From positions 1 to 64,000 of IMG/VR virus record IMGVR_UViG_3300036900_000025: a DNA stretch of 64,000 nucleotides. One strand, 5' to 3'. Shown here in pieces: positions 1 through 58,199 of this stretch. The DNA comes from a virus. The notes under the pieces were generated by a model. It did no database searches and was not told where the DNA came from. It was given only the letters and a program-made list of their open reading frames with translations. Within the stretch, counting starts at the first letter, position 1. Each line of letters opens with the position of its first letter. Position numbers and translations under genes: made by a program.

Positions 1-107
1 GTAGTGCGACAGGTCCGAGCCAGTCGTGCGATGTCCAACCGCTACGAATAGCATAGCACACCCCTGGCCCAGAGTCAAGCGGTAGGACCAGGGGCGTGCT
101 AGTGATG

Positions 108-2447: not shown

Positions 2448-2502
2448 GCCTACACCTCCTCCGATCAGTTGCGGACACCGTAACGCCTACGGTGGCGGTT
2501 TG

Positions 2503-3244: not shown

Positions 3245-3900
3245 GATGTTCTCCCTTGTGCGGCGAAGTACTCGCGACTCCCGTAGGCCGGGAACTCGCG
3301 ACGGGTGATGGAGCCGTCACGCATGAACTCCGTGACAGTCTCCTTGACGAAACGCTGGACGTACATGTCGGACTGGCTGCCTCGGTAGTGGTAGCCGTTG
3401 ACCAGGGTTGCCCACTGGTCCTCGCAGTCACCGTGTCCGTCGAGGCCCTGGCAGGTGAGCTGGCAGCCGAGGTTGTAGACGGTGTCCACGTCGAGCGTCC
3501 TGAAGACGACCCACGAGTGACCACCGATCTCGAAGTGGACTCCCCAGTGCCCGAGGACATCGAGCGTGTCGATCTTGCCGATCGGCACGCCGCCGAAGGT
3601 CTGGTTGATCAGCTCCTCGAAGCGGGCCAGCTCCTGCCGCTGCTTCGCTTCCTCGTACTCGTTCATGATCTTGAACCACGGACTGGTGTTGTGGACCAGC
3701 CACTGGACACCGGCGAAGTTGTCCCAGTTGTCCGGGTCGATCACCTCGGCATCGGCCCACCGGATGATCGTCTCGGTGCTGCCTGACGGTGTCTCCTCGT
3801 TGTGGAAGTCCTCCACGTCGCAGGAGTACCAGCCGTCGTCACCGTGCCAGTAGGCCTTCGAGTCGATCACGAAGAAGCTCTTGGGAGGCGTGATCTCCAT
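3241..3900 (-). CDS. hypothetical protein
   Basis: 219-aa ORF coupled to neighbours. Confidence 0.8.
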   Translation of the reverse strand: MEITPPKSFFVIDSKAYWHGDDGWYSCDVEDFHNEETPSGSTETIIRWADAEVIDPDNWDNFAGVQWLVHNTSPWFKIMNEYEEAKQRQELARFEELINQTFGGVPIGKIDTLDVLGHWGVHFEIGGHSWVVFRTLDVDTVYNLGCQLTCQGLDGHGDCEDQWATLVNGYHYRGSQSDMYVQRFVKETVTEFMRDGSITRREFPAYGSREYFAAQGRTS

Positions 3901-3901
3901 G

Positions 3902-4231
3902 TCAGGCTCCCTTCTTGAAGATGTCGCCGATGTGAGAACGGCGAATGCGGAGCGTGCTGTCTTGGGGGTACTTGCGTCCCCCGCTGTGCGAGCGCATCTT
4001 GGTCACGATCCAGGGCTCGTCAAAGCCGGTGATCTCGACCACGCACCCGGTGAGGTACTGCGGGCTGATGTTCTGGAGGGTGACCTTGTCGCCCGGCTCG
4101 ACCTGTGCAGCCTTGTCGGCAGCGATCGCCTCACGGCGGAGCTTGAGCCACCGGCCGATCTCGTCCAGGCGATCGTCGAGCATCCCGGATCGGACTTCGA
4201 GCATCAGTGTGCTGATGTCGGTGGTTGTCAC
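3902..4231 (-). CDS. hypothetical protein (possible SH3-like C-terminus)
   Basis: ORF in operon; VEPGDKVTL...GCVVEITG pattern. Confidence 0.7.
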   Translation of the reverse strand: MTTTDISTLMLEVRSGMLDDRLDEIGRWLKLRREAIAADKAAQVEPGDKVTLQNISPQYLTGCVVEITGFDEPWIVTKMRSHSGGRKYPQDSTLRIRRSHIGDIFKKGA

Positions 4232-4476
4232 TGCGGCCTCCTTGTCAGGTCGATCGGCGGGCGAGCGGCGTCACGGGCAGCCTGCTGGGCCAGACGTGTC
4301 TGGTACCAGGGCTGCTCGGTCAGGCGGAACTTCTCGATGGTCATCTCGAGCGCCTCCTCGTGCGTGTACTCCTCGGCACGGAGTTGGCCGTACCAGGCGA
4401 TACGCGAGGTGCCGCCGTTCACGCCGTCGAGGTGGAAGTACACGTCCTGTAGCTGGTCACGCCTGCGCTCGGTCAT
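4228..4476 (-). CDS. hypothetical protein
   Basis: MTERRRDQ start after GGAGGAGG. Confidence 0.7.
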   Translation of the reverse strand: MTERRRDQLQDVYFHLDGVNGGTSRIAWYGQLRAEEYTHEEALEMTIEKFRLTEQPWYQTRLAQQAARDAARPPIDLTRRPQ

Positions 4477-4640
4477 CGAACCTCCTCCAGGATGCCAGAC
4501 CAGGCCCACTCGTCGAGTGTGGTCTGGTCGTCGCAACAAGGACGACGACTGTCATCCTCGAAGGACACTGCGAGTGCGATGAGCAGCTCACGAAGAGCGC
4601 CGGTTGCTTGCGCCAGCGGCGTGTGCATGAGGGACTTCAT
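4473..4640 (-). CDS. hypothetical protein
   Basis: MKSLMHTP start coupled to the upstream stop (TGATG). Confidence 0.55.
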   Translation of the reverse strand: MKSLMHTPLAQATGALRELLIALAVSFEDDSRRPCCDDQTTLDEWAWSGILEEVR

Positions 4641-5044
4641 CAGCGCACGCTCGGATGACTGCCCTTGGGGCCGTCCATCGGCTGGGCGTGGTTGCCCGGC
4701 CGGTAGCACAGGCGCGCCCAGGCATCCGACGCCAGGGCCTCGACGTACGGCCGAGGTGACGTCATGCCGAACAGCTCGGGCTCGGCCAGCTTCCACTCCA
4801 TGCGGATCGGTTCTTGGGCGACCATGCGGCCGGTCGCGTCACGGGTCCACAACCGCCCGACGTAGCCGCGATGGGTGACCTTTAGGCCGTGACGTAGGGA
4901 CGACACGCGGGCCGTAGAGATGACCAATTTCACCGCCTCGGGCGTGATCTCGTAGCCGTTGATCTCGTGTCCGAGTGGCAGACGGATCACCTCACCGGTG
5001 ATCTTTCGCACCAGCGCGACGACCTGCATCTTGGTGAGCGACAT
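4640..5044 (-). CDS. hypothetical protein
   Basis: GGAGG SD before MSLTKMQ. Confidence 0.7.
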   Translation of the reverse strand: MSLTKMQVVALVRKITGEVIRLPLGHEINGYEITPEAVKLVISTARVSSLRHGLKVTHRGYVGRLWTRDATGRMVAQEPIRMEWKLAEPELFGMTSPRPYVEALASDAWARLCYRPGNHAQPMDGPKGSHPSVR

Positions 5045-5059
5045 CAGAACCTCCACGTC

Positions 5060-5440
5060 TTAGTGGGTCGGGTTGGTCTGCCCTGGTCGGGACCACCACC
5101 GGCTTTTACACGGTACGGCTGCGGTAATCCGTTCTGCCCGACCAGGGCAGACTACTGTGACAGGTTACCGGTTCTCCGGAAGATGTCTTACGTGACACCT
5201 TCGCGTCTATCGGTGGGGCGACTGTCAACCCAAGGGACTCCCCGACACGAACTGGCCCGGAGACGAGGTTCGGCAAGGGGCCGGGGATCTCACTTCTCAG
5301 CCCTGCGCTTACTGACATCAACTGCCGTGTGTGTCGTGCCGGGGAATCCTAGCCAGACAGGGATCTCACGGGGGTTAGACCCCTGCCTGGTTAGCAACCC
5401 CCGGCAGGAGGTTGCGTCTTGCTGTGCGATAGGACATACC
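5060..5440 (-). ncRNA. putative structured non-coding RNA or long structured leader
   Basis: No credible ORF; follows a TTGACA-18-TAGGGT promoter (~5447-5467); hairpin 5337-5406, multibranch ~5157-5227, perfect 16-bp stem 5076-5091/5137-5152. Confidence 0.55.
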
Positions 5441-5604
5441 CTACCATCACCTCGTAAGGCGTGTCAAGCGGTAGTCTGTATGTCTATTCGGTTGTGTCGC
5501 CGATTGCGTCAGCATGGCTCGGCCAGGCCTACGAGTGTTCACCAAGGGCAATCACAACGATTACCTCGAGGGTCTGAAGAGTTGTGACTCATCTGTGTCA
5601 GCGA

Positions 5605-5639
5605 GATGGGGCAGGCCTGGATGCCAGACCTGCCCCATC
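5605..5639 (-). terminator. hairpin downstream of the 5655-6542 gene
   Basis: GATGGGGCAGG...CCTGCCCCATC 11-bp inverted repeat. Confidence 0.65.
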
Positions 5640-5654
5640 GTCATCAGCGGCCGA

Positions 5655-6542
5655 TCACGCCTTGGTGGCGCCTCGGATGCCGTCCTTCATGCCCGGCGTG
5701 ATGCCCTCGACCGTGCAGTTCCCGCTGGACGGGAAGAGACGGGCCGAGATCGCACCGGCGCTGGGCGGGTTGTCGCCGTACTCGTCCGACTTCGCCGAAC
5801 GGATCTGGGCGACCGTCAGGAACGCGCCGGACTCGACGCCCGAGAACGCACTGGTGATGTGCTTCCCGATGTCCCGACGCGGGCCGTCGAAGGTCCCACC
5901 AGTCCGACCGGTGCCGACGCGAGCCGCCTTGCCCTGGGCGAGCTTGACCGCGGCCTTGACCACGGGGGTCGCCTCGGGCTCGTCGCCTCGGGTCGCCTCG
6001 TCGCCGGTGACCCAGGACAGGTACGCCTGCGCCTGGCCGGTGAACTCGCCGACGTTCTTCTCGACGTTGACCTGTGCGGCCGTCACGTCCACGCCCTCGC
6101 CCGCCGTGCTCTCGACGAGAGCGGTGGCCAGGCCGAGGATGGTGGCGCGCTGGACGTACGCCTCGGTCGGGTCGGCCGGAGCCTTCGGCTCCGAGCTGGC
6201 CTTGGCCGCCGTGAGCTGGTCGGACAGCGCCATGTACGCCTTCGCGAGGAAGATGTCGTTTGCGTTCATCGCGTCGCGCATCAGCTCGGTCATGCGGTTC
6301 TTGGCCGCGTTGCGAGCCTTGGTGCCGTCCAGCTCCCGGTAGGAGGCCTGGACCGGGGCGACGTTCTCCTCGGTCAGGGATCCGTCGTCGGCCTTGGTGC
6401 TGACTGCCGTGGTGACGGCAGCCTCGAAGCCGGTCAGGTCGATCGGCTTCTCCGGGGCCTTCTCGGCCTCGGTCGAGGCCGAGGCCTCGGTGGAGTCGGC
6501 CGCGGGGGCCTCGTCCGGGGTGTTCTTGTCACGTCGCGCCAT
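5655..6542 (-). CDS. abundant Ala-rich protein, possible C-terminal DNA-binding domain
   Basis: GGAGGT SD, strong GC3 bias like the capsid gene, two tandem upstream promoters. Confidence 0.85.
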   Translation of the reverse strand: MARRDKNTPDEAPAADSTEASASTEAEKAPEKPIDLTGFEAAVTTAVSTKADDGSLTEENVAPVQASYRELDGTKARNAAKNRMTELMRDAMNANDIFLAKAYMALSDQLTAAKASSEPKAPADPTEAYVQRATILGLATALVESTAGEGVDVTAAQVNVEKNVGEFTGQAQAYLSWVTGDEATRGDEPEATPVVKAAVKLAQGKAARVGTGRTGGTFDGPRRDIGKHITSAFSGVESGAFLTVAQIRSAKSDEYGDNPPSAGAISARLFPSSGNCTVEGITPGMKDGIRGATKA

Positions 6543-6603
6543 GATTGCTACCTCCATATGGGTCGGCGCTTCGGTCACGACCGGGCGGTCGCGCCGTTGG
6601 GAA

Positions 6604-6725
6604 TGACTCTAGGCGGTCGGGTTACCGTTGTCAAGTCCTTTCCCGATCTCCCTACCCGGTAGACTATCCGGGCCGGTCGATCACCTGCTAGCAACTAGCT
6701 TACCCGATCATCGGCGCGAAGTCAA
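6604..6725 (-). promoter_or_regulatory. two tandem sigma70-like promoters
   Basis: TTGACA-17-TAGAGT and TTGACT-17-TAAGCT on the minus strand. Confidence 0.75.
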
Positions 6726-6803
6726 GCGCAGGTTCGGTTCGGGTCATCCTAGGTTGCCAACCCGTGACACCATCGGGGGAGGATGATGTCACAGGCAAAC
6801 ACA

Positions 6804-6911
6804 CTAGAAGTGTCGGCCTGATCCGTCGTTATACGCCCAGACACAGAACAGGAAGAACAGCGTGAGGCCGATCATCCCGATGATGTACCAGGCGCGTGGA
6901 GTCAGCCGCAT
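6804..6911 (-). CDS. small membrane protein (35 aa)
   Basis: Manual translation MRLTPRAWYIIGMIGLTLFFLFCVWAYNDGSGRHF; one hydrophobic segment. Confidence 0.6.
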   Translation of the reverse strand: MRLTPRAWYIIGMIGLTLFFLFCVWAYNDGSGRHF

Positions 6912-7399
6912 CGATTGACCCAGGCCCAGGTCGCTTCCACAACGTGGGAGACGTGTCTGGCCACGATCGCGGGATCGTTCTCGGTGATCCGGGTTGGGTC
7001 GCCGATCGGGTTACCCATCTCGTCGTAACCTTGGATGTACTGCCGGGCGTAGTCGGTGCCAGACAGACCACCTTCGGTGCCGGAGTACAGGCCGACGAAG
7101 AGATACTCCCAGTCGTTCCGGCCGGGTGCCGGTGGGAAGATCACCTTCACGTTGGTGTTCGAGCCGGGCGAGTCACCCTGCTCGACGTGCGCGTTGAGCA
7201 TGAAGTACTCGCGCAGGACTCGGACGACCTCGTGGTGCCACTCGGTCAGCCGGTCGGACTCGGCACAGCTCTCGACGTATCCGAACGTCTCTTCGAATCC
7301 GTCGGCGATGATGCACTGGCCGACATAGTACGTCGGGAGCGCTTGCAGGTGGCCGATGATCGGGTCATCCAGCCTGATGCGAGTATCAAACATCTGCAT
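6902..7399 (-). CDS. hypothetical protein
   Basis: GGAGG SD before MQMFDTRI. Confidence 0.75.
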   Translation of the reverse strand: MQMFDTRIRLDDPIIGHLQALPTYYVGQCIIADGFEETFGYVESCAESDRLTEWHHEVVRVLREYFMLNAHVEQGDSPGSNTNVKVIFPPAPGRNDWEYLFVGLYSGTEGGLSGTDYARQYIQGYDEMGNPIGDPTRITENDPAIVARHVSHVVEATWAWVNRCG

Positions 7400-7760
7400 C
7401 CTCCCAGCCGACGTACTCGTTGGACATGAGCCGATACCATTCACGGGCCTCGGCCTCTGTCTGGACGTGGAACACGAAGATCATCCCGAGGCTGTTCTCG
7501 GTTGTGACGTAGAAGCCGGTTTCCAGCTCGGTGAACAGTTGCTGGAAGTCGGAGCCGTAGTCCTGGTGGCTCAGGAGATCCTGGAATCCCGCCGCGTCTG
7601 CGGGCGAGTAGCTGGTGATCGTGAAGAACCCGCACGGGGCCTCCACGTCACCGGACGACTCGTCGTTCCAGCCTGCGGTGATGATCGCCTTCCACAGGTT
7701 GTCATACTTCTGGTCTAGCAGGGCGAGGCCGCGTGCATTACGCGATCCGACTGTCTGCAT
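7386..7760 (-). CDS. hypothetical protein
   Basis: First gene after the promoter/SD cassette at 7765-7820. Confidence 0.8.
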   Translation of the reverse strand: MQTVGSRNARGLALLDQKYDNLWKAIITAGWNDESSGDVEAPCGFFTITSYSPADAAGFQDLLSHQDYGSDFQQLFTELETGFYVTTENSLGMIFVFHVQTEAEAREWYRLMSNEYVGWEDADV

Positions 7761-7764
7761 GATG

Positions 7765-7820
7765 TTACCTCCGTCTAGCGGGCCAAGCCCCAGCATAGCA
7801 CGAGTCTATGCTGGAGTCAA
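7765..7820 (-). promoter_or_regulatory. promoter plus conserved leader cassette, copy 1
   Basis: TTGACT(7820-7815)-17-TATGCT(7797-7792), then CCCGCTAGACGGAGGTAA. Confidence 0.85.
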
Positions 7821-7825
7821 GCGCT

Positions 7826-7987
7826 CTAGAGGTTGTGTTCGTCCAGGTAGTTGACCAGCTTCTGGACATGCTGGTGATACTCGGCGTGAGCGACCGTGTT
7901 CGTACGGTGCCACTTCTGCTCTTGCACGCCTGCACGGTACGCAGCCGCACGCGCCTCACGAATGAGTTGCCGGAGTACGGTGTCCAT
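7826..7987 (-). CDS. small hypothetical protein (53 aa)
   Basis: Manual translation MDTVLRQLIREARAAAYRAG...; TAATG coupling. Confidence 0.65.
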   Translation of the reverse strand: MDTVLRQLIREARAAAYRAGVQEQKWHRTNTVAHAEYHQHVQKLVNYLDEHNL

Positions 7988-8358: not shown

Positions 8359-8417
8359 GACTTACCTCCGTCTAGCGGGTCAACACTAAGCCTAGCACAA
8401 GTCTAGGCTCAATGCAA
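8359..8417 (-). promoter_or_regulatory. promoter plus conserved leader cassette, copy 2
   Basis: TTGCAT-17-TAGGCT; 30 bp at 8359-8388 identical to 9082-9111. Confidence 0.85.
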
Positions 8418-8422
8418 ACGCT

Positions 8423-8569
8423 CTAGGCGTGGATCGGGCAACGGCAGTGTTCGCCGTGGTCGGGCCACGAGTCGATTCGAGGGGTCACCCCGAACCTGTC
8501 CATGCCACGAGGTGACGTGACGTGACGGGAACGCTTGGACTTCTGGATCTGACGCACCACGCGACTCAT
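8423..8569 (-). CDS. small basic protein with a His/Cys tail (48 aa)
   Basis: Manual translation MSRVVRQIQKSKRSRH...DHGEHCRCPIHA*; ATGA overlap. Confidence 0.6.
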   Translation of the reverse strand: MSRVVRQIQKSKRSRHVTSPRGMDRFGVTPRIDSWPDHGEHCRCPIHA

Positions 8570-9081
8570 GGCTTCCCCATCTCTCGGACCTGTGCACGGA
8601 ATGCGATCGCCTCGCGGGCAGCCTTTCGCATCATGGAGTTGATCGGACCAGTCCAGCCGGTCGCCCGGATCATCGCGTCCACCGAGTCGTTACGGTTGCT
8701 GACGGAGCGAGACTTCCCGGACGATCGGGACGAACCCGACTTTGAGCCCTTCTTGATCTTCGGGAGCGCGTCCCGATTGCCGTAGCGATCCACGGCGTAG
8801 CTGACTGGGCAGAGTCCTTCTCCGTCAGCCGTGATGATCCACTCGACGTGGACCTTCGACTTCGAGGCGAGTACACGGGCCTCGTCGTAGGCGAGCTTCG
8901 CCCGTTCGGTAGCGATGGACTCGCGATCCGGCACGGCCCGAACGTCACCCTTGAGGAACAAAGGCGTATTCGTGCAACGCACCTCGTCACGGGTACGGAT
9001 CATCCCGTCTTCCATTCCAGACACCTTGGGCCCGGAACGATGGGAGACGCGTGACTTTGTTGGGGTCACAATGATGGACAT
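8566..9081 (-). CDS. hypothetical basic protein
   Basis: Start directly after leader cassette copy 3. Confidence 0.8.
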   Translation of the reverse strand: MSIIVTPTKSRVSHRSGPKVSGMEDGMIRTRDEVRCTNTPLFLKGDVRAVPDRESIATERAKLAYDEARVLASKSKVHVEWIITADGEGLCPVSYAVDRYGNRDALPKIKKGSKSGSSRSSGKSRSVSNRNDSVDAMIRATGWTGPINSMMRKAAREAIAFRAQVREMGKP

Positions 9082-9111
9082 GACTTACCTCCGTCTAGCG
9101 GGTCAACACTA
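9082..9111 (-). repeat. 30-bp direct repeat (leader/SD cassette, copy 3)
   Basis: gacttacctccgtctagcgggtcaacacta identical to 8359-8388; 18-bp core also at 7765-7782. Confidence 0.95.
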
Positions 9112-10111
9112 GTCACGAGGTCGCATAACGCAAGCGTAGCGAGTCGATTCGTGACTAATGCAAACCGTCTAGGCGACTAGTTGTCATCGGATTAGGTTTG
9201 CTAGGACCAATCTAGCGTGCAACCGATAGGATGTCAAGTCCTAGCCCGCTACCTAACTAGGCGATTGTCCGCCGTATCTAGTGGCGACTAGTTGTCCTAG
9301 TCGCTACCCGATTAGGTAGCGGGCCCATAGGTCACACTAGAGTCGTCCCTACGTTCTAGCCGCTAGTCATGGTGGTCCACGACTAGTCGTCCGTTAGATC
9401 ACACTACGATCTAGGACACGACCCTACGCAAAGTCGATCTACCTATGGTCATCGGTCACAACCCGGCCGGATCGCCCCGGTAACTAGTCGCATCGTCGGA
9501 ACCCTACGCATCTAGGACTCACCTAGACAGAGTTCTTCTGTGTGACTAGTGCCTAGTTTGTCGGCACTATCCGATGATGACCGGTCGTCGATGCCGGTTT
9601 CTATGTTGCTAGGACTAGCCTAGCCTATCTAGCGGCCGTTGTCAAACGACCGGTCTAACTAGGTTCGGCACCTAGGACTAACCTACGGGCGAACCGTAGT
9701 GCCTAGACTAGTCGTTATCCGGGGTGCCGCCATGCGGCCCGCTATGGATGGGCGACTAGTCGCCGTTCCGTTGTTGCTAGGACTAACCTACCATCCTAGC
9801 GACTAGTTGTCAACTAGATTCGTTGACCATTCGGTAACGCCTACCTAGTGACGACTAGTCGTCGGGGTGATCCGCATGGATCCCGCTATGACGACTAGTC
9901 CCTATCCGACTACGACGAATCGTGTGGATAGCACTACGACGGTAGACTAACACGACTAGTCGTCGCGTGTCAATACCGAAAGTCGTATCTATCTAGTTGT
10001 GGTGGTGCGATCGTACCTACGGGGCGCGGCGCGCCCGACTAGTCGTCGGGCCATTCCGGCGGGTCCGTGGTGCGATGGGACAATCAAACCACGGATGCGA
10101 CTAGTCGTCAA
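9108..10111. repeat. array of ACTAGT-centred palindromes (consensus RCGACTAGTYGY) interleaved with leftward promoters
   Basis: ACTAGT at 9108, 9176, 9287, 9382, 9483, 9545, 9707, 9755, 9802, 9854, 9894, 9955, 10038, 10100. Confidence 0.9.
9209..9973 (-). promoter_or_regulatory. four stacked sigma70-like promoters
   Basis: TTGACA-17-TAGATT (9237-9209), TTGACA-17-TAGGCT (9645-9617), TTGACA-17-TAGGTT (9813-9785), TTGACA-18-TAGTCT (9973-9944); three share the leader GTCCTAGCAA. Confidence 0.8.
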
Positions 10112-10175
10112 CGGACAAATCGGACAGTTTCCAAGATCTTTTAGCCGATGCGGCCCGATAGGGTGCGCTATCGGG

Positions 10176-10194
10176 TTAGGTAAGGCTACCCTAA
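10176..10194. promoter_or_regulatory. IdeR/DtxR-type iron box
   Basis: TTAGGTAAGGCTACCCTAA matches the consensus TWAGGTWAGSCTWACCTWA at 18 of 19 positions. Confidence 0.8.
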
Positions 10195-10439
10195 GTCGCC
10201 TAGGATCGTTGCGATGACGACTGTTGAAGACTCAACTAAATCCGGGCCGGGGGGTGCGTGCGGCCGCTCTTGCCACTTTCGGTGCGCAGAAACTTTTCCA
10301 AACGCCTTATACAGTCTATTCTGATCAATTTCGGGATGCTAGTATTATTGTCTGGAATACTGACGAACTGAAGCGTTCTTGCCGAATGTTTCACTGTTCC
10401 CATCCATAAGGAAGGAGGAAGTGAGTCATTCTAGAGCAG

Positions 10440-10825
10440 ATGTCTTCGTATGTATTCACTATGTCTTCAATATTGTATTCATAAATAACAGCAGGTAGAA
10501 CGTATGATGATCTAGGAAACCCCATTGTGAGGACACCATCTACACCCCTAGCATCACCCAGAGTTGCTAGTAGTAGCATCCTTACCACTTCATGAGTACC
10601 AGTACGACTGTAGCTACTATCGGGCTATCCATGCGTAGGTTAGAAGGGGGGGCGTGTCTTCAATATTCGGGTGTATTCATAATCCCGTCTTCAAAAATAA
10701 CCGCAGGTCACGGGCACAATTGGGTGTCTACGAAACCCGTATTCATAATCCCGAATATTGAAGACACGGCATCAATATTCGACCGACTTTGGTCCTAGGA
10801 CTAGCGTGTGTATTCATAATGTCAT
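10440..10825. repeat. AT-rich block with direct and inverted repeats (candidate origin or packaging site)
   Basis: GTATTCATAAT three times plus two partial copies; perfect 19-bp inverted repeat 10653-10671/10750-10768. Confidence 0.7.
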
Positions 10826-11021
10826 CAAAATTCTGAGTCTCCCTCCGCAAGTTTCTGATGCTCGTACTGCTTTCGATGTTTGACGCCCGATATGGGGGGT
10901 ACGGGTCCGCTTGTGCTCGTCCGTGGATGGGAGTAGGCTGGCCCCACAACAGACGCCTGGTCAGCAGACTGCGGCCCGATATGGCGCACCGTGAGGGAAA
11001 CAGCCGTTCTTCGGAGGACTG

Positions 11022-11381
11022 ATGTACGAATACACCGGCAAGGTCACCAGAGTGGTCGATGGGGACACTCTTCACGTCGATATCGACCTGGGGTGCGACA
11101 CTCATCTCAATATGACGATCCGGCTCGATGGGATCGACGCTCCGGAGATGAGTACGAGCGAAGGTCACCTCGCTCGTGATTACGTCGTGGCGTGGCTGGA
11201 GCAGTTCGGCAACCAGGTTGTCGTTCGGACGGTCAAGGACAAGAAGGAGAAGTACGGGAGATATCTCGCGTGGATCTGGCCTCCTAACATCATGGACCGT
11301 CCCGGCGACAACTCGTTGCAAGACGACATGCTTGCTCGCGGCTACGCGAAGCCCTACGCCGGAGGTAAGCGCGATGTCTGA
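11022..11381 (+). CDS. thermonuclease (SNase) family protein
   Basis: VTRVVDGDT, IRLDGIDAPE, KYGRYLA and GYAKPY motifs. Confidence 0.92.
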   Translation: MYEYTGKVTRVVDGDTLHVDIDLGCDTHLNMTIRLDGIDAPEMSTSEGHLARDYVVAWLEQFGNQVVVRTVKDKKEKYGRYLAWIWPPNIMDRPGDNSLQDDMLARGYAKPYAGGKRDV

Positions 11382-13549: not shown

Positions 13550-13832
13550 CTAGGCCCCTATCGCGTCGGTGCTGGCGGATGATCTCATCAAGCAGGTTGT
13601 CAAACTTCACCTGAGCATCGGTGCGGGTACGCCGTACGACTGTCTTGCCCTTTGTGCGCTGGCGCATCTCGTGTCGCAGCCGGCCTCGGTCGCGCTCGGA
13701 CTTCTGACACAGAGGTCCATGACAGTCCTCCGCGTAGGTCGCCCTGGTTCCGTGGGTGCGATTGAGGAACTTCTCATCTTCAAGTTCGGCGCGCACACGT
13801 TCCAACAAGGCTAGAACCTCCTCAGATGACAT
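13500..13832 (-). CDS. hypothetical protein (HGT..TY...CH...C motif)
   Basis: Overlaps the helicase stop; basic, possible Zn/DNA binding. Confidence 0.7.
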   Translation of the reverse strand: MSSEEVLALLERVRAELEDEKFLNRTHGTRATYAEDCHGPLCQKSERDRGRLRHEMRQRTKGKTVVRRTRTDAQVKFDNLLDEIIRQHRRDRGLDEFPAAGGLEPASNGS

Positions 13833-15678
13833 ACTTGTACCTCACGGTTGGCCGTCCCACGCCTTTGGAGATGACCGGCTCGATCTCGCCCAACTCTGTC
13901 ATGTACTTCAGTACTTTCGACACGAGGTCGAGTGGGTACTTCTTGCGCTTCAGGCGGATCACCAAGTCACGCTGTGAGGGGGGCCGACCCTTCTCGGTCA
14001 GCTGTCGAACGTGACGTGCGATCTCCTCCTGACATTCGTTCATCAGAGTTGATCCGAGTTGTGCGGCAGGAATCGCGTAGGCAGCGATCAGGTACGGGTA
14101 CATCTTGATGACCTTGTCCACGATCTCAACCGGGACAACGTCGTGGTGACCGTTCGCTGACAGAAGCAGGATCAGCTTCTTCATCAGGAGGTCCATGCGT
14201 GTCAGCAGACCGGACTCGTCTGCCTGCTGCTTGGGGTGCAACAGCTCGTGGAAGAACGTACTGAACCGTTCCAAGGCCTCTGCCGACCACTGGATCTGCT
14301 TGCCCATCATAATCCAGCCGCGCAGGTTATCGAGCAGTGGATCGCAGGTGTGCGTGTCGATCTGGATACCGCCGACCGCGTACCGCTGCTTCTGCTTGCC
14401 TGAGGCGAACACCCAGCGGTTGAGGAACCCGGAGTCGGCGTCGGCCTGGTTGATGAGCTTCTTCAGCGCCCTGGGCTGGGTCGTCGTCCACACGGTGCAG
14501 TAAGGATCGTGTGCCTGGTTGTTGCCGTGTGTCATACTGATTGTGGAGACGACCTGCTGAACGTCGTACATCTCCATAAGTGTCGGCTTCATCACGTTGC
14601 CCTGACGCGACGTGCGACCTACAAGCGCCGAGAGTTCGTTGAACTCTACGATGCCGCGTACAGGCGCATAGTAAGCAACGGACTTGGGGTTACTGGGGTC
14701 AGGGATTGGCTTACTGAAACCGTGGATAAGCGCTTCCGCAGATGCTGGGGTGTTGATCCAGTGCGTTCCCTTTGAAGTTGCATCATCCCAGCGATGAGGA
14801 AGCGCACGACGCATAAGTGTCTTGAGATGATTGAAGGATCGACTCTTACCGTCCCCCGTGTGACCAGTGAGGCACACAAACAGGTTGCCATATACCGGCA
14901 CGCGGTCATAGAGAGTCACGTCCTTACCGATTGCCATACCTACGGCGATGATCCCGTTCCAGAAGTTGTACTCTTCCGGGATATCGTCCATGCAGGTGAC
15001 GCGCATGTACTCGTCTAGGAAGGTGTTGGGCTCAACGATGTTCGTCCAGTCAAGCGTCGGGAAGACGATCTCTTCTTCCTCGTCGTCATCATCACCTGTG
15101 ATCGAGACGACGGGGGCGACGGGAGAGTCTACCGATTCATCTGCTGGAGTACTCTCTCGGCTCTCTTCAGGAGGGACCGGAATAGGAGCCATGACGCCAG
15201 GTAGAGAGACAAAAGTCCAGCCGAAGCTGCGAGCCATGTCCCGACGGAGGTTGTGGAAGTCTGCTCCGGACTTGTAACCGGGCCGCTGGTAGCCAAAGTG
15301 GATTGCAGCGAGGTCATAGTGATCTCCACCTTCCTGGCAACCGCCACAGAACCAGGTATTCTTGTCAGTGTTGAGCCAAGCTGACGGGTCGCGGTCTGGG
15401 TGGCTGGGAAGCGGACAGCTAACCTTGATGCCTTCGGTTCGCTTGTCGGCTGGATTGACCGCTGACTTGTTGATCCACTTGCGGTAAGCGTCGATGATCC
15501 CGATGCGATTGACTGCCTCGTCAAGGCTTTGATCCTCGGGTGATCGCTGGTAGGGGTCCTCTGGCGTCAGATCGGCGAAATCTGACGGTGTTGAGGGAGG
15601 AGGAGGTGGTGGAACAGCCTTTGCGGCTTCTTCGGCAGCACGCCGCTCAGCGAGCTTCTGCTCGAACTTAGAAGTCAC
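13822..15678 (-). CDS. CHC2-like Zn-finger plus P-loop (DUF3987-like) primase-associated helicase
   Basis: CPLPSHPDRDPS...WFCGGCQEGGD; Walker A GHTGDGKS; Walker B-like VEFNEL; GFLNRW; C-terminal wHTH-like segment. Confidence 0.8.
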   Translation of the reverse strand: MTSKFEQKLAERRAAEEAAKAVPPPPPPSTPSDFADLTPEDPYQRSPEDQSLDEAVNRIGIIDAYRKWINKSAVNPADKRTEGIKVSCPLPSHPDRDPSAWLNTDKNTWFCGGCQEGGDHYDLAAIHFGYQRPGYKSGADFHNLRRDMARSFGWTFVSLPGVMAPIPVPPEESRESTPADESVDSPVAPVVSITGDDDDEEEEIVFPTLDWTNIVEPNTFLDEYMRVTCMDDIPEEYNFWNGIIAVGMAIGKDVTLYDRVPVYGNLFVCLTGHTGDGKSRSFNHLKTLMRRALPHRWDDATSKGTHWINTPASAEALIHGFSKPIPDPSNPKSVAYYAPVRGIVEFNELSALVGRTSRQGNVMKPTLMEMYDVQQVVSTISMTHGNNQAHDPYCTVWTTTQPRALKKLINQADADSGFLNRWVFASGKQKQRYAVGGIQIDTHTCDPLLDNLRGWIMMGKQIQWSAEALERFSTFFHELLHPKQQADESGLLTRMDLLMKKLILLLSANGHHDVVPVEIVDKVIKMYPYLIAAYAIPAAQLGSTLMNECQEEIARHVRQLTEKGRPPSQRDLVIRLKRKKYPLDLVSKVLKYMTELGEIEPVISKGVGRPTVRYKYVI

Positions 15679-15680
15679 AG

Positions 15681-16532
15681 TTAGTCGGTCCAGGGAGTGG
15701 CTGTAGTCAGTGCCCACTCGGGATCGCAGGGAACCATCTGGCCCATCGGCGTTCGCATGTCGATAAAGAACGTGGGATCAGTGGACTTCAGGTTTCGTCC
15801 CAGGGGAAGTCGCATGAGGTTCCCAAGATCCTTGCCACCGAGGCTGTCCTGCTTAGGAAATACCTCGATTGACAGGTTAGGATAACCGCTGATCGGATCG
15901 CGGTCGATAGAGCGATAGAAGTTGTCTCCCCGAGCAGGTGCCCAACCGCCGAGCGCATCGAGTACGATTCTGGCTCCGTCTCGTGCGTCACGAGCAGGTA
16001 TCCGTCCAGTGAAGCCGTAGACGTGAACACCCTTACCTCCGGAGTACGCGACGGCTACAGGCAGATCAAGCTCATCGTGGACATACTTGGCGAGGAGAGA
16101 AGCCACCATCTTGAGCTGGAACTTGTACCAAGCCCTACCAGGGTGGCTTCGATCTTTCCAGGACGCTCTGGCATCGGCGTACTCGATGGTCGGATTATCA
16201 TTGGCGTCTTGAAAATCAGGTACATAAGTGCCTCGGTAGGGGTCCGACTCCTTCTCGGGGTCGCCGTCCTTCTCTAGGTCGATGTCGAAGGCGAACAGCT
16301 TGACGGTGTCGTCAGTGTTCAGCAGGTAGTGACCGAAGGAGCGGCTACCGTCCAGGTGAGCCAGAAGATCTTCTCGCGTCCAGGGCAATCTCGTCTTACT
16401 GCCCTGTGGACCCGTTTCGTGGGGCGTCCAGATGCCCGTTGTCTGCTGTATCGCCTTGACGTCTGGCCTTGCGATGAACTTCGCGGCGAACAGGTTTGCA
16501 ATAACGTTCGGGTCAGACAAGTAAGCCCCCAT
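15681..16532 (-). CDS. archaeo-eukaryotic primase (AEP) family primase/polymerase
   Basis: FAFDIDL, YSGGKGVHVY, IEVFPKQ, GNLMRLPLG motifs. Confidence 0.88.
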   Translation of the reverse strand: MGAYLSDPNVIANLFAAKFIARPDVKAIQQTTGIWTPHETGPQGSKTRLPWTREDLLAHLDGSRSFGHYLLNTDDTVKLFAFDIDLEKDGDPEKESDPYRGTYVPDFQDANDNPTIEYADARASWKDRSHPGRAWYKFQLKMVASLLAKYVHDELDLPVAVAYSGGKGVHVYGFTGRIPARDARDGARIVLDALGGWAPARGDNFYRSIDRDPISGYPNLSIEVFPKQDSLGGKDLGNLMRLPLGRNLKSTDPTFFIDMRTPMGQMVPCDPEWALTTATPWTD

Positions 16533-50984: not shown

Positions 50985-51465
50985 AAGCTCGGTGCGCTCC
51001 AGGCGTGTTGAGCATCTCCAGCTTTGCGATGACCTCAGAAATCACGTCTTGGCCGTAGTAGCGGCCGCAGAGTGCAAGCAGACAGACGATCACGTCAGCA
51101 GACTCCTTGACGACACTGTCGCCCTTGTACGACTTGGCTGAATTGCGGCCTTCGTCGATGGTGAGAGCTTCGGCAACCTCTCCGAGTTCTTCCATCGCCT
51201 TGCCAAGAAGGTCAACTGACGTTGCGTTGGGAAAGCGCGCCTCGTGCCACTTGGTGGCAGTAGTAACGAGTCGGTTGTCTGACACTCTTTCTCCCATGTA
51301 GTGAACCACGGTTACTGGACCGTAGTTGCCTGCGATCTTTGTCCATGACTCTGGATCCTCTGAAGAGTCTCCAACCCAGTACCCTTCAGGCAAGTGGACC
51401 CAACGTTGGCCTTCCGAGTCTCTGACGATTGACGCAACTGGTGGTTCGGGATCAGTCGAAGTCAA
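50971..51465 (-). CDS. mazG: MazG-like nucleotide pyrophosphohydrolase with an extra N-terminal domain
   Basis: KAMEELGEVAEAL...KESADV. Confidence 0.8.
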   Translation of the reverse strand: MTSTDPEPPVASIVRDSEGQRWVHLPEGYWVGDSSEDPESWTKIAGNYGPVTVVHYMGERVSDNRLVTTATKWHEARFPNATSVDLLGKAMEELGEVAEALTIDEGRNSAKSYKGDSVVKESADVIVCLLALCGRYYGQDVISEVIAKLEMLNTPGAHRASIPG

Positions 51466-52201
51466 AGCCTGCGCCTTCGCCTTCGAGGAGCTTGGCACTA
51501 GCACGCCTCCAGTTCTCTTCATCGTACTCGATGCCGATTGCACACCGAGCCATACGCTCTGCTGCCCGGACGAGTGAGCCACTTCCTCCGAATGGGTCGA
51601 TCAGCCAGTCACCAGGATTGGTAGAATGTGCGATCAGCTTCTCCAGGAGTGCTGTCGGCTTCTCGTGAGGATGGATCAGCTCGTTGGGCCGGAGTTGGGG
51701 TGTGTGGAGGACGTTGTTACGCCTGATGTCTGACTTCGGACGGTCCCCACGCTTGTAGTAGAGAATGAACTCGCAGCCCATCCCCCAGGACTCCAGGTCC
51801 CCCATCCCTGGGCCGTCCTTCTCCCACACCAGGATCGCCTTGCGAGTGAACCCGTGAGGGGCGAAGAGGTCCCTCGTGAACGTCAGCCACTCCTCGAGGA
51901 CTTGGTGCGCCGTAAAGACGTAGATGTCCGAGGCAGGCTTTAGTGCGGGCATGAGGGAGGAGAACACGTTGGTAAAGGTCCGCATGGCGACCTCGGGCGA
52001 TTCGTCGTTGGCGATCTTCCGAGCGTTCGCCTTGCCGTCAGCGGTCACCGCCATGTTGGAGAGGTTATCCACTCCGAAGGGCGGGTCGGTGATGACTGAC
52101 TGGATCATCCCAGGCTTGAGCAGCTTCGTCAGGTGAACACTGTCACCGTGCCAGATCTGATGCTGCGACGTGTTCTTGCCGGGGACAACTAGGTCAGTCA
52201 T
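51452..52201 (-). CDS. N6-adenine/N4-cytosine DNA methyltransferase (beta class)
   Basis: TDPPF precedes HPHEKP and DPFGGSGS. Confidence 0.93.
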   Translation of the reverse strand: MTDLVVPGKNTSQHQIWHGDSVHLTKLLKPGMIQSVITDPPFGVDNLSNMAVTADGKANARKIANDESPEVAMRTFTNVFSSLMPALKPASDIYVFTAHQVLEEWLTFTRDLFAPHGFTRKAILVWEKDGPGMGDLESWGMGCEFILYYKRGDRPKSDIRRNNVLHTPQLRPNELIHPHEKPTALLEKLIAHSTNPGDWLIDPFGGSGSLVRAAERMARCAIGIEYDEENWRRASAKLLEGEGAGFDFD

Positions 52202-57328: not shown

Positions 57329-58035
57329 TACCTCACCTCGATCGGAGGCTCGTAGCCGGTTTCGGCTGTCCAGAGGAAGTTGTCGATGTAGAACTGGTAC
57401 TCCCTGATGGACTGGCACAGGTCGTCCAGCGGACGGTGCTGCTTGACCGGGCTCACGGCGTCATCGAGCTTGGAAAAGACTCGTGGGTTGAGCCGACGGC
57501 AAGCGTTCTTGATCGTGGAGATGTCGAGGTTGCGGTAGTGGAAGTGACCCTCGAATTTCTCCATGTCGTTGTTGCGAAGCATCTCGCGGTCGAAGTGGAC
57601 AGACGACCCAGCGAACTCGGCCGTGGTGGCTTCCAGGCCCCAGTCGAGCATGAAGTCACGAAGTAGATCGGCAGCGTCGTCTGGATGGAAGAACTCGTGA
57701 CCGTCCTCTCGCCTTCCAGCGAGGTCGAGGTCATGCAGTAGGCCGGACTGTTCGTGCATGTTCTTGACGTAGGGGATCATGGCCCCCACAGCGAACTGGT
57801 ACTTCGGAGTAGAGTCGTAGACGAGAATGTCGTACTTCGCATCCTCGATCAGCCGACCGAACCCATCCGTGAGGAGAACGCCGACTTCGAGAACGACGTC
57901 CTTCTGCATGTTCAGGCCGGTCGTCTCGATGTCCACCCAGGGCAGGATGTCCTTTGCCTCGAGACTACCGTGCTCGGTGTCGTCGTGAACTTCCATGTTG
58001 CGCTTGTTGGCCCAGCGCAAGAACTCGCTGCTCAT
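57328..58035 (-). CDS. orn: oligoribonuclease (DEDDh)
   Basis: WVDIETTGL, MHEQSGL, AGSSVHFDR, FHYRNLDIST, HRPLDDL..SI.E..FY. Confidence 0.92.
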   Translation of the reverse strand: MSSEFLRWANKRNMEVHDDTEHGSLEAKDILPWVDIETTGLNMQKDVVLEVGVLLTDGFGRLIEDAKYDILVYDSTPKYQFAVGAMIPYVKNMHEQSGLLHDLDLAGRREDGHEFFHPDDAADLLRDFMLDWGLEATTAEFAGSSVHFDREMLRNNDMEKFEGHFHYRNLDISTIKNACRRLNPRVFSKLDDAVSPVKQHRPLDDLCQSIREYQFYIDNFLWTAETGYEPPIEVR

Positions 58036-58199
58036 CCGTGCTCCTTCTGTGCGAACTCGCGGAGGTCAGTCTCGCTGACCCGCCACTGGCCGTTGATCTT
58101 GGTGGACTTGATCGTCCCGTTCTTGAGCCACTCCCGGACGGTGGCCGGGGTCACCTGAAACATGTCCGCGATCTGGCTGGCCTTGTAGAACTGGTCCAT
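58032..58199 (-). CDS. excisionase-like HTH DNA-binding protein
   Basis: IADMFQVTPATVREWLKNG.I...K.NGQWRV. Confidence 0.88.
   Translation of the reverse strand: MDQFYKASQIADMFQVTPATVREWLKNGTIKSTKINGQWRVSETDLREFAQKEHG

Follow-up and report, generated by a model that had tools for sequence, protein, structure and literature searches.

A CTAG-rich dyad array in the gene-free gap of a soil actinobacteriophage: candidate operators for early transcription

Introduction

Large gene-free regions are rare in phage genomes, and one such region in an uncultured actinobacteriophage from a soil metagenome (genome of 78,954 bp; IMG/VR record IMGVR_UViG_3300036900_000025) raises the question of what a 1.1-kb non-coding stretch crowded with CTAG and ACTAGT palindromes might do. 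The window analysed here is the 64,000-nucleotide stretch from position 1 to position 64,000 of that record. A first-pass annotation, made from the letters alone, had viewed the array as a binding platform for a dimeric protein and had offered four functions for it: an operator array silencing early promoters, a decoy for a host enzyme, a methylation-gated switch or a parS-like site.

The phage is kin to Rhodococcus phage ReqiDocB7 and the Gordonia CS, DF and CX phages. Its TerL is 56% identical to that of ReqiDocB7 and 47–52% identical to those of Jumbo, Trogglehumper, Woes and GTE7, and portal, capsid, tape measure, helicase, PrimPol, CobT/AAA, WhiB, RusA, clamp and Xer-like recombinase are common to the phage and its relatives in the same order. 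The group is regarded as lytic (PMC13313380) and includes many cultured phages of Gordonia, Rhodococcus and Tsukamurella. A gene-free, inverted-repeat-rich gap near the right end has been reported for it with no function assigned (PMC4563357); the gap has been on record since 2011–2015 without a role. In our best reading, this DNA is where a virulent-type actinobacteriophage controls its early transcription; it is situated in the right-end gap of the ReqiDocB7/GTE7/Jumbo group, and the array is an extreme version of the relatives' non-coding region near the genome end. Three matters had escaped the first-pass annotation: the CTAG excess outside the palindromes, the prior description of the region in the phage group, and a replication origin as a serious rival.

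Results

The two transcription arms of the genome diverge from the gap that carries the array. The leftward arm extends for ~36 kb, from 9081 to 1 and then from 78943 to ~51452, with the array at its head. The gene-free gap spans 9082–11021 (1.94 kb) and contains no credible ORF, which upholds the description of the array as non-coding; no ORF longer than 40 aa lies wholly inside the array, and a 72-aa frame (9999–10217) overlaps its right edge. The helicase (D5/P4-alpha-like, 13822–15717) and PrimPol (15681–16613) lie 3.6–6.5 kb away, and four rightward genes are inserted between the gap and this helicase block. The metagenome contig has no end repeats, and the assembly is continuous through the gap (as judged from contigs). 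The sequencing runs listed with the stretch comprise one soil-metagenome DNA run, probably the source sample, and no RNA run. Features are collected in Table 1.

The CTAG content of the array, previously put at about 40, is 42 in 9090–10205 versus 4.3 expected from base composition; the other 77.8 kb contain 107 versus 147 expected under a second-order Markov model. Across the genome CTAG occurs 149 times, as against 642 for GATC, a word of the same composition. The 14 ACTAGT sites counted earlier are confirmed and make up 14 of the 16 in the genome. The word is indeed rare elsewhere, but two further copies (48774 and 56653, both in coding DNA) exist where about one had been noticed. Palindromes of 10–14 bp are present as originally written, at 9850 (GACGACTAGTCGTC) and 9751 (GGCGACTAGTCGCC), and all genome copies of CGACTAGTCG (6/6) and GACTAGTC (8/8) fall inside the array. 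Roughly two thirds of the surplus CTAG falls outside the palindromes, and part of that stems from promoter elements, namely -10 hexamers starting with TAG and a GTCCTAG element; the excess is largely the sum of consensus promoters, GTCCTAG and dyads. Recent tandem duplication had been named beforehand as an alternative explanation. Tandem Repeats Finder reports no tandem array in 9090–10205, and the repeat units are only 60–86% alike around an invariant ACTAGT core, so recent duplication alone does not account for the enrichment.

The dyad has the 14-bp consensus RCGACTAGTCGYC and a symmetric logo, with information confined to within 7 bp of the centre, which suits a dimeric DNA-binding protein. 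The array holds 11–14 copies and the rest of the genome almost none; with up to three mismatches to the 14-mer allowed, the counts are 11 and 4, respectively. Spacings are irregular (40–162 bp), and no consistent helical phase was found when they were compared by hand from the coordinates. The general idea of a platform for a dimeric protein accords with the symmetry of the dyad, and taken as a whole that proposal is only partly supported. The Xer-like recombinase was rejected as a reader of the dyad: seven conserved base pairs on each side are too short for recombinase core sites, and its gene lies ~22 kb away.

Four consensus promoters of the host sigma-A type (TTGACA-17/18-TAGnnT) are predicted in tandem within the array. 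They represent 4 of the 18 genome matches to TTGACN-16..18-TAnnnT, and all four point leftward; most of the other matches checked lie directly upstream of leftward genes, four of them with leaders of ~20–27 nt. P9237 is the last predicted promoter before the first leftward gene and would give a leader of ~120 nt. The leftward polarity extends to the single elements, with six TTGACN on the minus strand versus one on the plus strand and six GTCCTAG versus two, the six copies of this promoter-proximal element occurring as in TAnnnT-AGTCCTAG. No U-tract terminators follow the array promoters. Three ACTAGT sites had been assigned to promoter spacers; this holds for those at 9802 and 9955, on consensus promoters, and is weaker for the one at 10100, which accompanies a poorer candidate (-35 TTGACG, -10 TTTGAT). 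Overlap with a -35 or spacer is seen for 3 of the 14 dyads, versus ~2 expected by chance placement on our own estimate, and the seven other leftward early promoters (78–7820) carry no dyad.

The array shares the inverted-repeat richness of the known gap, with 33 inverted-repeat pairs and strong self-complementarity. Its most self-complementary stretch (folding z about -6.9 on both strands) coincides with the perfect inverted repeat at 9244..9324. An integron attC-like reading was discarded, the inverted-repeat arm being ATTAGGT and not GTTRRRY. The iron box at the upstream edge of the array is the only match with at most four mismatches in the 79-kb genome. DnaA boxes do not cluster at the array, and Rfam and tRNA scans returned no match.

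Table 1. Coordinates of the array, its predicted elements, the flanking DNA and genes discussed in the text
Feature	Position	Strand	Remarks
CTAG/ACTAGT array	9090..10205	-	gene-free early-promoter and dyad region; 42 CTAG, 14 ACTAGT
ACTAGT site 1, core only	9104..9117	.	word count, logo
Dyad GGCGACTAGTTGTC	9172..9185	.	mismatch scan, logo
Dyad GGCGACTAGTTGTC	9283..9296	.	mismatch scan, logo
Dyad CACGACTAGTCGTC	9378..9391	.	mismatch scan, logo
ACTAGT site, one good half-site	9479..9492	.	logo
ACTAGT site, core only	9541..9554	.	logo
ACTAGT site CTAGACTAGTCGTT	9703..9716	.	mismatch scan, logo
Perfect 14-bp dyad GGCGACTAGTCGCC	9751..9764	.	mismatch scan, logo
Dyad AGCGACTAGTTGTC	9798..9811	.	overlaps -35 of P9813; promoter and mismatch scans
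Perfect 14-bp dyad GACGACTAGTCGTC	9850..9863	.	mismatch scan, logo
Dyad GACGACTAGTCCCT, one good half-site	9890..9903	.	mismatch scan
Dyad CACGACTAGTCGTC	9951..9964	.	in spacer of P9973; promoter and mismatch scans
Dyad CCCGACTAGTCGTC	10034..10047	.	mismatch scan
Dyad TGCGACTAGTCGTC	10096..10109	.	abuts TTGACG at 10111; promoter and mismatch scans
Promoter-like P9237	9209..9237	-	TTGACA-17-TAGATT then GGTCCTAGCAA
Promoter-like P9645	9617..9645	-	TTGACA-17-TAGGCT then AGTCCTAGCAAC
Promoter-like P9813	9785..9813	-	TTGACA-17-TAGGTT then AGTCCTAGCAAC; ACTAGT dyad abuts -35
Promoter-like P9973	9944..9973	-	TTGACA-18-TAGTCT; ACTAGT dyad in spacer
Weaker promoter-like site	10083..10111	-	TTGACG-17-TTTGAT, poor -10; ACTAGT dyad abuts -35
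Perfect 13-bp inverted repeat	9244..9324	.	GCCCGCTACCTAA / TTAGGTAGCGGGC; encloses two CTAGTCGC-type sites
IdeR/DtxR-type iron box	10176..10194	.	17/19 to the consensus; upstream edge of array
Most AT-rich 150 bp of genome	10341..10490	.	37% G+C; repeats TGTCTTCAATATT, GTATTCATAAT
Second G+C minimum	10691-10840	.	43%; adjoins the array, as the first minimum does
First leftward gene	8566..9081	-	lineage-specific ORFan; two-helix segment conserved at the C terminus; candidate regulator only
First rightward gene, SNase-like nuclease	11022..11381	+	right border of 1.94-kb gap
N6_N4 DNA methyltransferase	51452..52201	-	DpnA/CcrM-like, N6-adenine type
55-aa excisionase/MerR-type HTH_17 protein	58032..58199	-	BldC-like; candidate binder only

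The soil phage has, as its relatives do, a gap of more than 1 kb, bounded by the first leftward gene and, on the other side, by the primase/helicase block or left end, and the placement is the same in ReqiDocB7, GTE7, GordTnk2, Perlina, Jumbo, Trogglehumper and Woes. The gap is directly 3' of the primase/helicase gene in GordTnk2 and Jumbo; in ReqiDocB7, GTE7, Perlina and Woes, whose gaps contain TATATA runs, a few small genes intervene. The physical ends of three of these genomes lie inside the equivalent gap, marked by direct terminal repeats of 370 bp (Jumbo), 330 bp (Trogglehumper) and 184 bp (Woes), and in all three the repeat-rich part has the first leftward gene on one side and the right terminal repeat on the other. 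The gaps carry motifs of their own: RAATG-N6-CATTY in ReqiDocB7, AGGGACTGGCAT in GordTnk2 and Jumbo, and GGGCGCCCTCGATC in Trogglehumper. The gap of ReqiDocB7 contains 12 copies of its dyad, three of which enclose a leftward -35, and six further copies are intergenic, at least three of these six immediately preceding the -35 of an early promoter that points leftward.

Seven genomes (CS-type, TIN2 and ReqiDocB7-type) gave usable counts, and in these ACTAGT falls far below its reversed control (1–11 versus 10–47). Its concentration at the terminal gap or early intergenic regions is seen only in CS-type phages and TIN2, where those regions hold 6 of 6 copies in Woes, 8 of 11 in GTE7, 5 of 6 in TIN2, 4 of 7 in Hotorobo and the single copy (1/1) of Benczkowski14. 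The sole ACTAGT of Jumbo lies inside its terminal repeat. As in the soil phage, ACTAGT in GTE7, Woes, Hotorobo and TIN2 is rare genome-wide and clustered at the right-end gap or early intergenic regions, and Woes carries the palindrome GGTACTAGTACC. Promoters of the CS cluster (GTE7, Woes, Hotorobo) and TIN2 have the form TTGACA-17-TAnnnT-AGT(A/C)C. In the GenBank records of TIN2 and GTE7, ACTAGT is found within early promoter cores of the form TTGACA-17-TAGACT-AGTACCAC, and TIN2 also has TTAACT-AGTCCTAG, the same proximal element as in the soil phage. The word is used differently, however: in GTE7 and TIN2 it mostly forms the junction of the -10 (TAGACT) and the downstream AGTACC, one per promoter in several intergenic regions, whereas in the soil phage it is a symmetric dyad with CG flanks, present in 14 copies in one array and separate from the -10 hexamers.

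No close relative of the array was recovered in searches of several collections. Megablast and blastn with the region and tblastn with the first leftward gene found no match among 50,697 phage records. In IMG/VR, queries with four proteins (the 171-aa protein, the caspase-like protein, the helicase and the 307-aa early protein) turned up either no relative or distant ones (38–46% identity) without arrays; the exact 14-mer gave 27 single matches and no arrays, and the pair CGACTAGTCG-N62-92-CGACTAGTCG gave one unrelated match. The CGACTAGTCG pair pattern had 100 matches in metagenomes, with no protein or DNA similarity to the phage, and the two such contigs examined whole are low-complexity tandem repeats of eukaryotic appearance. 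Exact matches to GACGACTAGTCGTC number at least 120 in 185,579 species genomes and are mostly at convergent gene ends or terminator hairpins; among the Actinomycetota matches listed there is no recurring intergenic context, a weak test limited to exact matches.

The putative binders in the phage are candidates only: the 55-aa HTH_17 protein, an HTH protein (phrog_15020) at genome positions 65123–66259 and the product of the first early gene. The HTH_17 protein is conserved in Jumbo (gp56) and ReqiDocB7 (gp046). The first early gene has its closest homologues, 79% and 64% identical, on contigs of 4.0 and 1.1 kb; a metagenome scan with an alignment of these two found no match. Its AlphaFold2 model is poor (pLDDT 51), with confidence restricted to residues 130–170. 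Profile searches of the phage for HTH_3, RHH_1 and Trp_repressor found none of these repressor families. The methyltransferase has 62–65% identity with its counterparts in Tsukamurella phages and CS-cluster Gordonia phages; no other non-structural protein common to the phage and the ACTAGT-bearing CS and TIN phages is conserved as well. Orthologues are also present in ReqiDocB7 and Perlina, whose dyad is a different, non-CTAG one. The small terminase is unusually large, at 460 aa. Small proteins with counterparts in CS phages alone are encoded at genome positions 64672–65001, 67556–67807 and 70777–71217.

Discussion

We tentatively read the dyads as operators at which a dimeric protein, probably encoded by the phage, controls early transcription, and would place this reading a little short of an even chance. 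Several features speak for it: the array lies right beside the first gene of the leftward arm, its predicted promoters face leftward, the dyads are symmetric and relatives carry ACTAGT or other dyads at early promoters. With four predicted promoters, three overlapping dyads and the relatives' elements, it is the best supported of the four functions first offered. Dyads on a -35 or spacer would block polymerase, those downstream would block elongation and those upstream would permit cooperative binding or looping, and occupation of the ~1-kb region could shut off or time early leftward transcription. A precedent is Gp36 of the lytic mycobacteriophage D29, a small MerR/BldC-like protein that binds repeats and represses phage genes (PMC12266134). 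Several observations speak against operators. The number of dyads on core promoters is near chance level, the other seven early promoters are without a dyad, single-locus motifs typify cis-acting origins and sites of packaging or partition more than they do regulators, and the most AT-rich DNA of the genome adjoins the array, as at origins. A BldC-like binder in particular is disfavoured by the finding that BldC-type proteins bind direct repeats and not palindromes (PMC5859096).

The adjoining AT-rich DNA, comprising the two most AT-rich segments of the genome, makes a replication origin the main rival, in which the dyads would be iterons for a phage initiator, the AT-rich DNA would unwind and the promoters would provide transcriptional activation. 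Confinement of the motif to one locus, with 11–14 boxes over ~1 kb, the divergence of the transcription arms from the gap, and the proximity of a primase/helicase gene to the gap in relatives (3.6 kb to the helicase and PrimPol here) are all consistent with an origin. On the other side, the gap and the helicase block have four rightward genes between them, DnaA boxes do not gather at the array, and the AT-rich part sits upstream of the leftward promoters and away from the early genes. Where the ends of relatives are known, that side is the left-end side and the dyad arrays are on the early-gene side. The ReqiDocB7 dyad, moreover, is also present in six intergenic regions outside the gap, in several of them at early promoters, a pattern more in keeping with regulation than with an origin. 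We regard an origin as unlikely, if still deserving of serious weight.

A function at the genome terminus, with the dyads as a small-terminase platform of the pac or cosB kind or as a control of DNA entry, appears improbable to us. The physical ends of Jumbo, Trogglehumper and Woes inside the equivalent gap, the one ACTAGT of Jumbo in its terminal repeat, the single-locus motif and the large small terminase point towards it, but the assembly of the soil phage runs through the gap without a break, known pac and cosB sites are much smaller, and the ACTAGT elements of relatives are in promoter cores.

Similarly improbable is a host-factor or epigenetic platform, on which the dyads would attract or titrate a transcription factor or a defence protein of the host, or would be methylation-sensitive sites read in concert with the N6-adenine methyltransferase of the phage. 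At the array edge stands one iron box close to the host IdeR/DtxR consensus, and the methyltransferase is the best-conserved non-structural protein in common with the ACTAGT-bearing CS and TIN phages, yet its orthologues in ReqiDocB7 and Perlina coexist with a non-CTAG dyad, and GACGACTAGTCGTC in species genomes is found mostly at gene ends and hairpins among the exact matches listed, a weak test. From one phage host to another, the flanks of the ACTAGT core also change (GGTACTAGTACC in Woes, GACGACTAGTCGTC in the soil phage), which suits a co-evolving phage protein better.

An RNA element, whether short non-coding RNAs or a structured leader with the palindromes as CUAG-loop hairpins, is very unlikely. 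Promoters without genes in the array and strong predicted folding, seen on both strands with z as low as -6.9 and also in the 120-nt leader of the first gene, would accommodate it; the z-scores are inflated, because any two palindrome copies pair by construction, and equal on both strands, no Rfam family matches, and the promoters lack U-tract terminators. The parS-like partition centromere of the first-pass annotation, which many palindromic sites at a single locus might suggest, can practically be set aside, given no ParB_N in a six-frame search, no ParA or ParB family member in Pfam scans of ~60 ORFs from the leftward arm and its flanks, and a group considered lytic.

The operator reading can be extended, at the price of becoming distinctly unlikely, to lineage-wide control of an undescribed kind across CS-type Gordonia phages, Tsukamurella phages and the soil phage. 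A single conserved factor would recognise ACTAGT at early promoters, the word would have been purged elsewhere against stray binding, and here it would have been multiplied into a ~1-kb genome-end nucleoprotein platform that couples early shut-off to replication start or end processing, possibly via N6-adenine methylation by the co-inherited methyltransferase. The dissection of the gap given here, with tandem host-type early promoters, a lineage-specific proximal element and one sharp dyad, is the clearest so far. Since ACTAGT is depleted genome-wide yet kept at the early-promoter or terminal region of several cultured relatives (GTE7, Woes, Hotorobo and TIN2), the question can be put to the bench. 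Should a binder be found, it would yield strong actinobacterial promoters in a compact set, together with their defined operator, and a handle on early-gene timing in virulent phages that have no recognisable repressor.

Among known systems, the operator sets of phage repressors include the conserved inverted repeats of phiC31, OR/OL of lambda and the stoperators of mycobacteriophages. Such operators are short, occur in several copies and sit at early promoters, and a 14-bp dyad is within the range of an HTH dimer; they are, however, spread over several genome loci and have known binders, whereas all sites here are in one 1.1-kb locus. Iteron origins offer a second comparison. The iterons of the lambda origin are dyad-symmetric, the origins of SaPIs and P4 lie next to D5-type helicase genes, and Streptomyces oriC has ~19 boxes in 1 kb. 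Like the array, these origins combine many boxes at one locus with an AT-rich neighbour and a helicase or primase nearby; the array departs from them in its irregular spacing, its interleaved strong outward promoters and its want of clustered DnaA boxes.

Packaging sites of the pac and cosB type have 3–7 sites in 100–250 bp. In P1 pac, seven TGATCA hexamers lie in 162 bp and Dam methylation gates cleavage. The likeness to the array consists in clustered palindromic hexamers, each with a methylatable core of 4 bp, and in a phage-encoded N6-adenine methyltransferase, and the difference in density (7 sites per 162 bp against 14 per 1.1 kb here) and in the terminase cleavage that P1 pac undergoes. 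The early promoters A1–A3 of T7 are accompanied by repeat arrays beside the terminal repeat, and T5 has a repeat region and an "injection stop signal". The likeness to the present locus lies in tandem strong host-type promoters and dense repeats or palindromes in the non-coding DNA of a virulent phage, in T7 and T5 beside a direct terminal repeat; their sequences are unrelated to the array.

Gp36 of D29 differs from whatever would read the array in that its targets are direct repeats (PMC12266134), as opposed to the palindromic dyads found here. The nearest counterpart is the gap of the relatives, which measures 1.2–2.5 kb (PMC4563357) as compared with 1.94 kb in the soil phage and likewise has many inverted repeats and no genes; what sets the soil phage apart is its ACTAGT-centred 14-bp dyad, a far denser array and a tenfold excess of CTAG.

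CTAG Content of the Array

The gene-free array at 9090–10205 holds 42 CTAG sites against 4.3 expected by base composition, bearing out the saturation (about 40 sites) described in the first-pass annotation, and 14 of the 16 ACTAGT sites of the whole 78,954-bp record. Both perfect 14-mers quoted in that annotation lie inside the array, as do all six copies of CGACTAGTCG in the record. The avoidance of CTAG also holds, with 107 sites outside the array versus 147 expected under a Markov model and, genome-wide, 149 CTAG versus 642 GATC, a word of equal composition. The whole genome of Trogglehumper has only 9 CTAG in 83.6 kb (63.8% G+C), compared with 87–180 in its relatives.

As proposed, the array is non-coding: no credible ORF is present in the gap (9082–11021), and tRNA and Rfam scans found no tRNA and no Rfam family in the region. 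Recent duplication, raised earlier as a possible source of the enrichment, is insufficient on its own, since Tandem Repeats Finder detects no tandem array in 9090–10205, the repeat families are just 60–86% alike, and their ACTAGT core is invariant. Units of the GCGACTAGTCGC type also occur as a 28-bp tandem repeat (7870–7930) in an unrelated Acidimicrobium MAG and as 24–39-bp satellite-like arrays in unrelated metagenome contigs, which are low-complexity and eukaryotic-looking.

Promoters, Proximal Element, and Dyad

Read on the minus strand, the array resolves into three elements: promoters, a promoter-proximal element, and the dyad, a symmetric 14-bp palindrome centred on ACTAGT. Its four consensus sigma-A-type promoter sequences, TTGACA-17/18-TAGnnT, are among 18 pattern matches genome-wide (both strands). 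The early block (78 to 7820) contains seven other matches, the majority directly upstream of leftward genes and four with leaders of about 20–27 nt, so that the pattern identifies genuine promoters of the phage. The element (A/G)GTCCTAGC directly follows three of the four array promoters and one promoter elsewhere (69229). Each of the six GTCCTAG copies on the array's minus strand is preceded by a TAGnnN hexamer, and the array is polarized leftward (minus versus plus: TTGACN, 6 versus 1; GTCCTAG, 6 versus 2; TAGG[TG][TA], 11 versus 5). Of the 28 CTAG sites outside ACTAGT, most consist of a C ahead of a −10-like hexamer that starts with TAG, belong to GTCCTAG, or form half-sites like CTAGTCGC; the excess of CTAG thus arises for the most part incidentally, from promoter parts and dyad.

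The dyad logo, RCGACTAGTCGYC, is symmetric, with information confined to 7 bp on either side of the centre, and at three or fewer mismatches there are 11 copies in the array versus 4 in the other 78 kb. Three promoters have a dyad on their −35 or spacer, three have one 20–40 bp downstream, and four have one 80–100 bp upstream, positions that suit repression, roadblock, and looping; by our estimate, the three overlaps are no more than chance in DNA so promoter-rich.

The record and the soil-run Logan contig differ at one position only: C>T at 9208 changes TAGATT-G-GTCCTAG on the minus strand to TAGATT-A-GTCCTAG, the form of the other promoters. A single near-consensus IdeR/DtxR-type iron box, with 17/19 positions matching, borders the array upstream. 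It is the only match of such quality in the 79-kb genome and includes TAGGGT, a −10-like hexamer (minus strand). The ribosome-site motif CCGCTAGACGGAGGTAA precedes three leftward starts, and in the copies at 9084–9112 and ~8360–8395 a near-identical cassette, TTGACCCGCTAGACGGAGGTAAGTC, stands directly before the start codon. The consensus promoter at 69229, with a AGTCCTAGC element, lies upstream of a Cys-rich leftward ORF that it is predicted to drive; the initial gene call placed a plus-strand ORF in lieu of this one.

Features of the array and of the wider genome
Feature	Position	Strand	Remark
Consensus promoters (−35)	9973, 9813, 9645, 9237	-	
Fifth promoter-like site	10111		−35 good, −10 poor
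IdeR/DtxR-type iron box	10176-10194		
Ribosome-site motif	9084-9112, ~8360-8395, ~7765-7790	-	
AT-rich windows	10341-10490, 10691-10840		37% and 43% G+C
29-bp inverted repeat	10653-10681 / 10740-10768		AT-rich windows
Methyltransferase	51452-52201		DpnA/CcrM-like
HTH_17 protein, 55 aa	58032-58199	-	candidate binder; excisionase/BldC-like; between DnaQ-like exonuclease and SNF2 helicase genes
HTH protein	65123-66259		candidate binder; adjoins Xer-like recombinase
Xer-like tyrosine recombinase	66393-67253	-	
Cys-rich ORF with its promoter	68467-69229	-	

Genome Layout and the Gene-Free Gap

The stretch makes up the opening 64 kb of an IMG/VR record with a CheckV completeness of 100% and without end repeats, and it is present in one soil-metagenome run. 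Its large terminase shares 56% identity with the ReqiDocB7 (Rhodococcus phage) protein and 47–52% with the counterparts in Gordonia phages Jumbo, Woes, and GTE7 and in Rhodococcus phage Trogglehumper. Gene order agrees with this group (helicase, PrimPol, terminases, structural genes, RecB-like nuclease, then WhiB) and is shared further through RusA, clamp, DnaQ-like exonuclease, SNF2 helicase, Xer-like recombinase, and a CobT/AAA pair. Phages of the group are considered lytic, with direct terminal repeats (PMC5559632; PMC13313380); the Xer-like recombinase is present in every member, its role having been left open (PMC13313380). Leftward genes run from 9081 to 1 and then from 78943 to about 51452, and rightward genes start at 11022; the array therefore stands at the head of a leftward arm of ~36 kb, composed of small, mostly orphan genes.

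Liu et al. described a gene-free gap rich in inverted repeats near the right end as "unusual" for phages, with no function assigned (PMC4563357). An equivalent gap is found at the equal location in ReqiDocB7 (68370–70852), GTE7, GordTnk2, Perlina, Jumbo, Trogglehumper, and Woes. In all three relatives with determined ends, the gap contains the terminal repeat (370 bp in Jumbo, 330 bp in Trogglehumper, and 184 bp in Woes), with the repeat-rich part flanked by the first leftward gene and the right repeat; AT-rich DNA follows toward the left end. By analogy, the array would lie just inside the right end of virion DNA. Adjoining it are the two 150-bp windows with the lowest G+C in the genome. They bear their own repeats, TGTCTTCAATATT and GTATTCATAAT, and may serve as an unwinding element, contain rightward promoters, or represent terminal-repeat DNA.

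ACTAGT and Other Dyads in Relatives

No close relative of the array was found in the collections searched (phage records, IMG/VR, and metagenomes), and in each of the more distant relatives the gap has a repeated motif of its own. ReqiDocB7 carries 12 copies of RAATG-N6-CATTY there, and in three of these a leftward −35, with TAGnnT after it, is enclosed by the dyad. A further six intergenic copies, of RAATG-N6/7-CATTY, lie among its early leftward genes (65508, 66567, 67012, 67414, 67985, and 52599), at least three of them immediately 5′ to the −35 box of a leftward early promoter; the motif looks like an undescribed early-promoter regulatory motif. The right-end non-coding DNA of Woes (72105–73752) contains seven copies of GTAGTTG-N5-CAACTAC in steps of 35 or 47 bp, together with GGTACTAGTACC-type sites.

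In CS-type (a Gordonia phage cluster), TIN2, and ReqiDocB7-type genomes with usable counts, ACTAGT is much rarer (1–11) than its reversed control (10–47). In CS-type phages and TIN2, the leftover sites are concentrated in the terminal gap or early intergenic regions: 6/6 in the terminal gap of Woes, 8/11 in early intergenic regions and gap of GTE7, 5/6 at early or terminal locations in TIN2, 4/7 in Hotorobo, 1/1 in Benczkowski14, and the sole site of Jumbo inside its terminal repeat. ACTAGT is part of early promoter cores in TIN2 and GTE7, TTGACA-17-TAGACT-AGTACCAC, and one TIN2 promoter, TTAACT-AGTCCTAG, has a proximal element identical to that of the array. From this placement, early promoter regions with ACTAGT characterize the CS-like lineage, the one nearest to this phage's leftward arm. 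The array is the extreme case, a symmetric ACTAGT dyad multiplied at one locus.

Candidate Binding Proteins

The 55-aa HTH_17 protein, whose gene is absent from the G+C-based gene call, has the BldC–DNA complexes 6AMA and 6AMK as best solved relatives and is conserved in Jumbo (gp56) and ReqiDocB7 (gp046); the recognition helices have diverged. Lytic actinophage D29 offers a precedent in Gp36, a small MerR/BldC-like, repeat-binding repressor of phage genes (PMC12266134); the precedent is qualified by the use of direct repeats by BldC-type proteins (PMC5859096). A second candidate, the HTH protein, matches phrog_15020 and Jumbo gp64; Woes and GTE7 match it more strongly. The third is the lineage-specific product of the first leftward gene, in which only a conserved C-terminal helix-loop-helix is modelled with confidence.

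Function of the Array

We rank first, tentatively, the reading of the array as an operator array for the early promoters with a putative binder, because of its promoter content, its polarity, and the presence of ACTAGT or other dyads at the early promoters of several relatives. The main rival, an iteron replication origin, would account for a motif limited to a single locus, for the genome's two most AT-rich windows directly adjoining it, and for the primase/helicase genes next to the gap in relatives; we consider it rather unlikely. A genome-end function, in terminase action or DNA entry, is improbable. So, in our judgement, is a host-factor or methylation platform. Among the matches listed (at least 120, exact match, species genomes), the dyad itself gave no host-regulon sign. 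The methyltransferase is 62–65% identical to its CS and TIN phage counterparts, and its orthologues at 50% identity occur in ReqiDocB7 and Perlina, both with a non-CTAG dyad. A parS-like site, suggested in the first-pass annotation, is not supported, as six-frame and ORF scans found no ParB. Such scans for a binder also found no HTH_3, RHH, or TrpR-like protein. Operator, origin, terminus, and host-factor functions need not exclude one another.

This kind of region is already known, as are operator and iteron arrays in general. New are the motif, its density, and its dissection into promoter cores and dyad, as is the genome-wide depletion of ACTAGT with its retention at the early-promoter/terminal region of cultured relatives, which makes the question open to bench tests.
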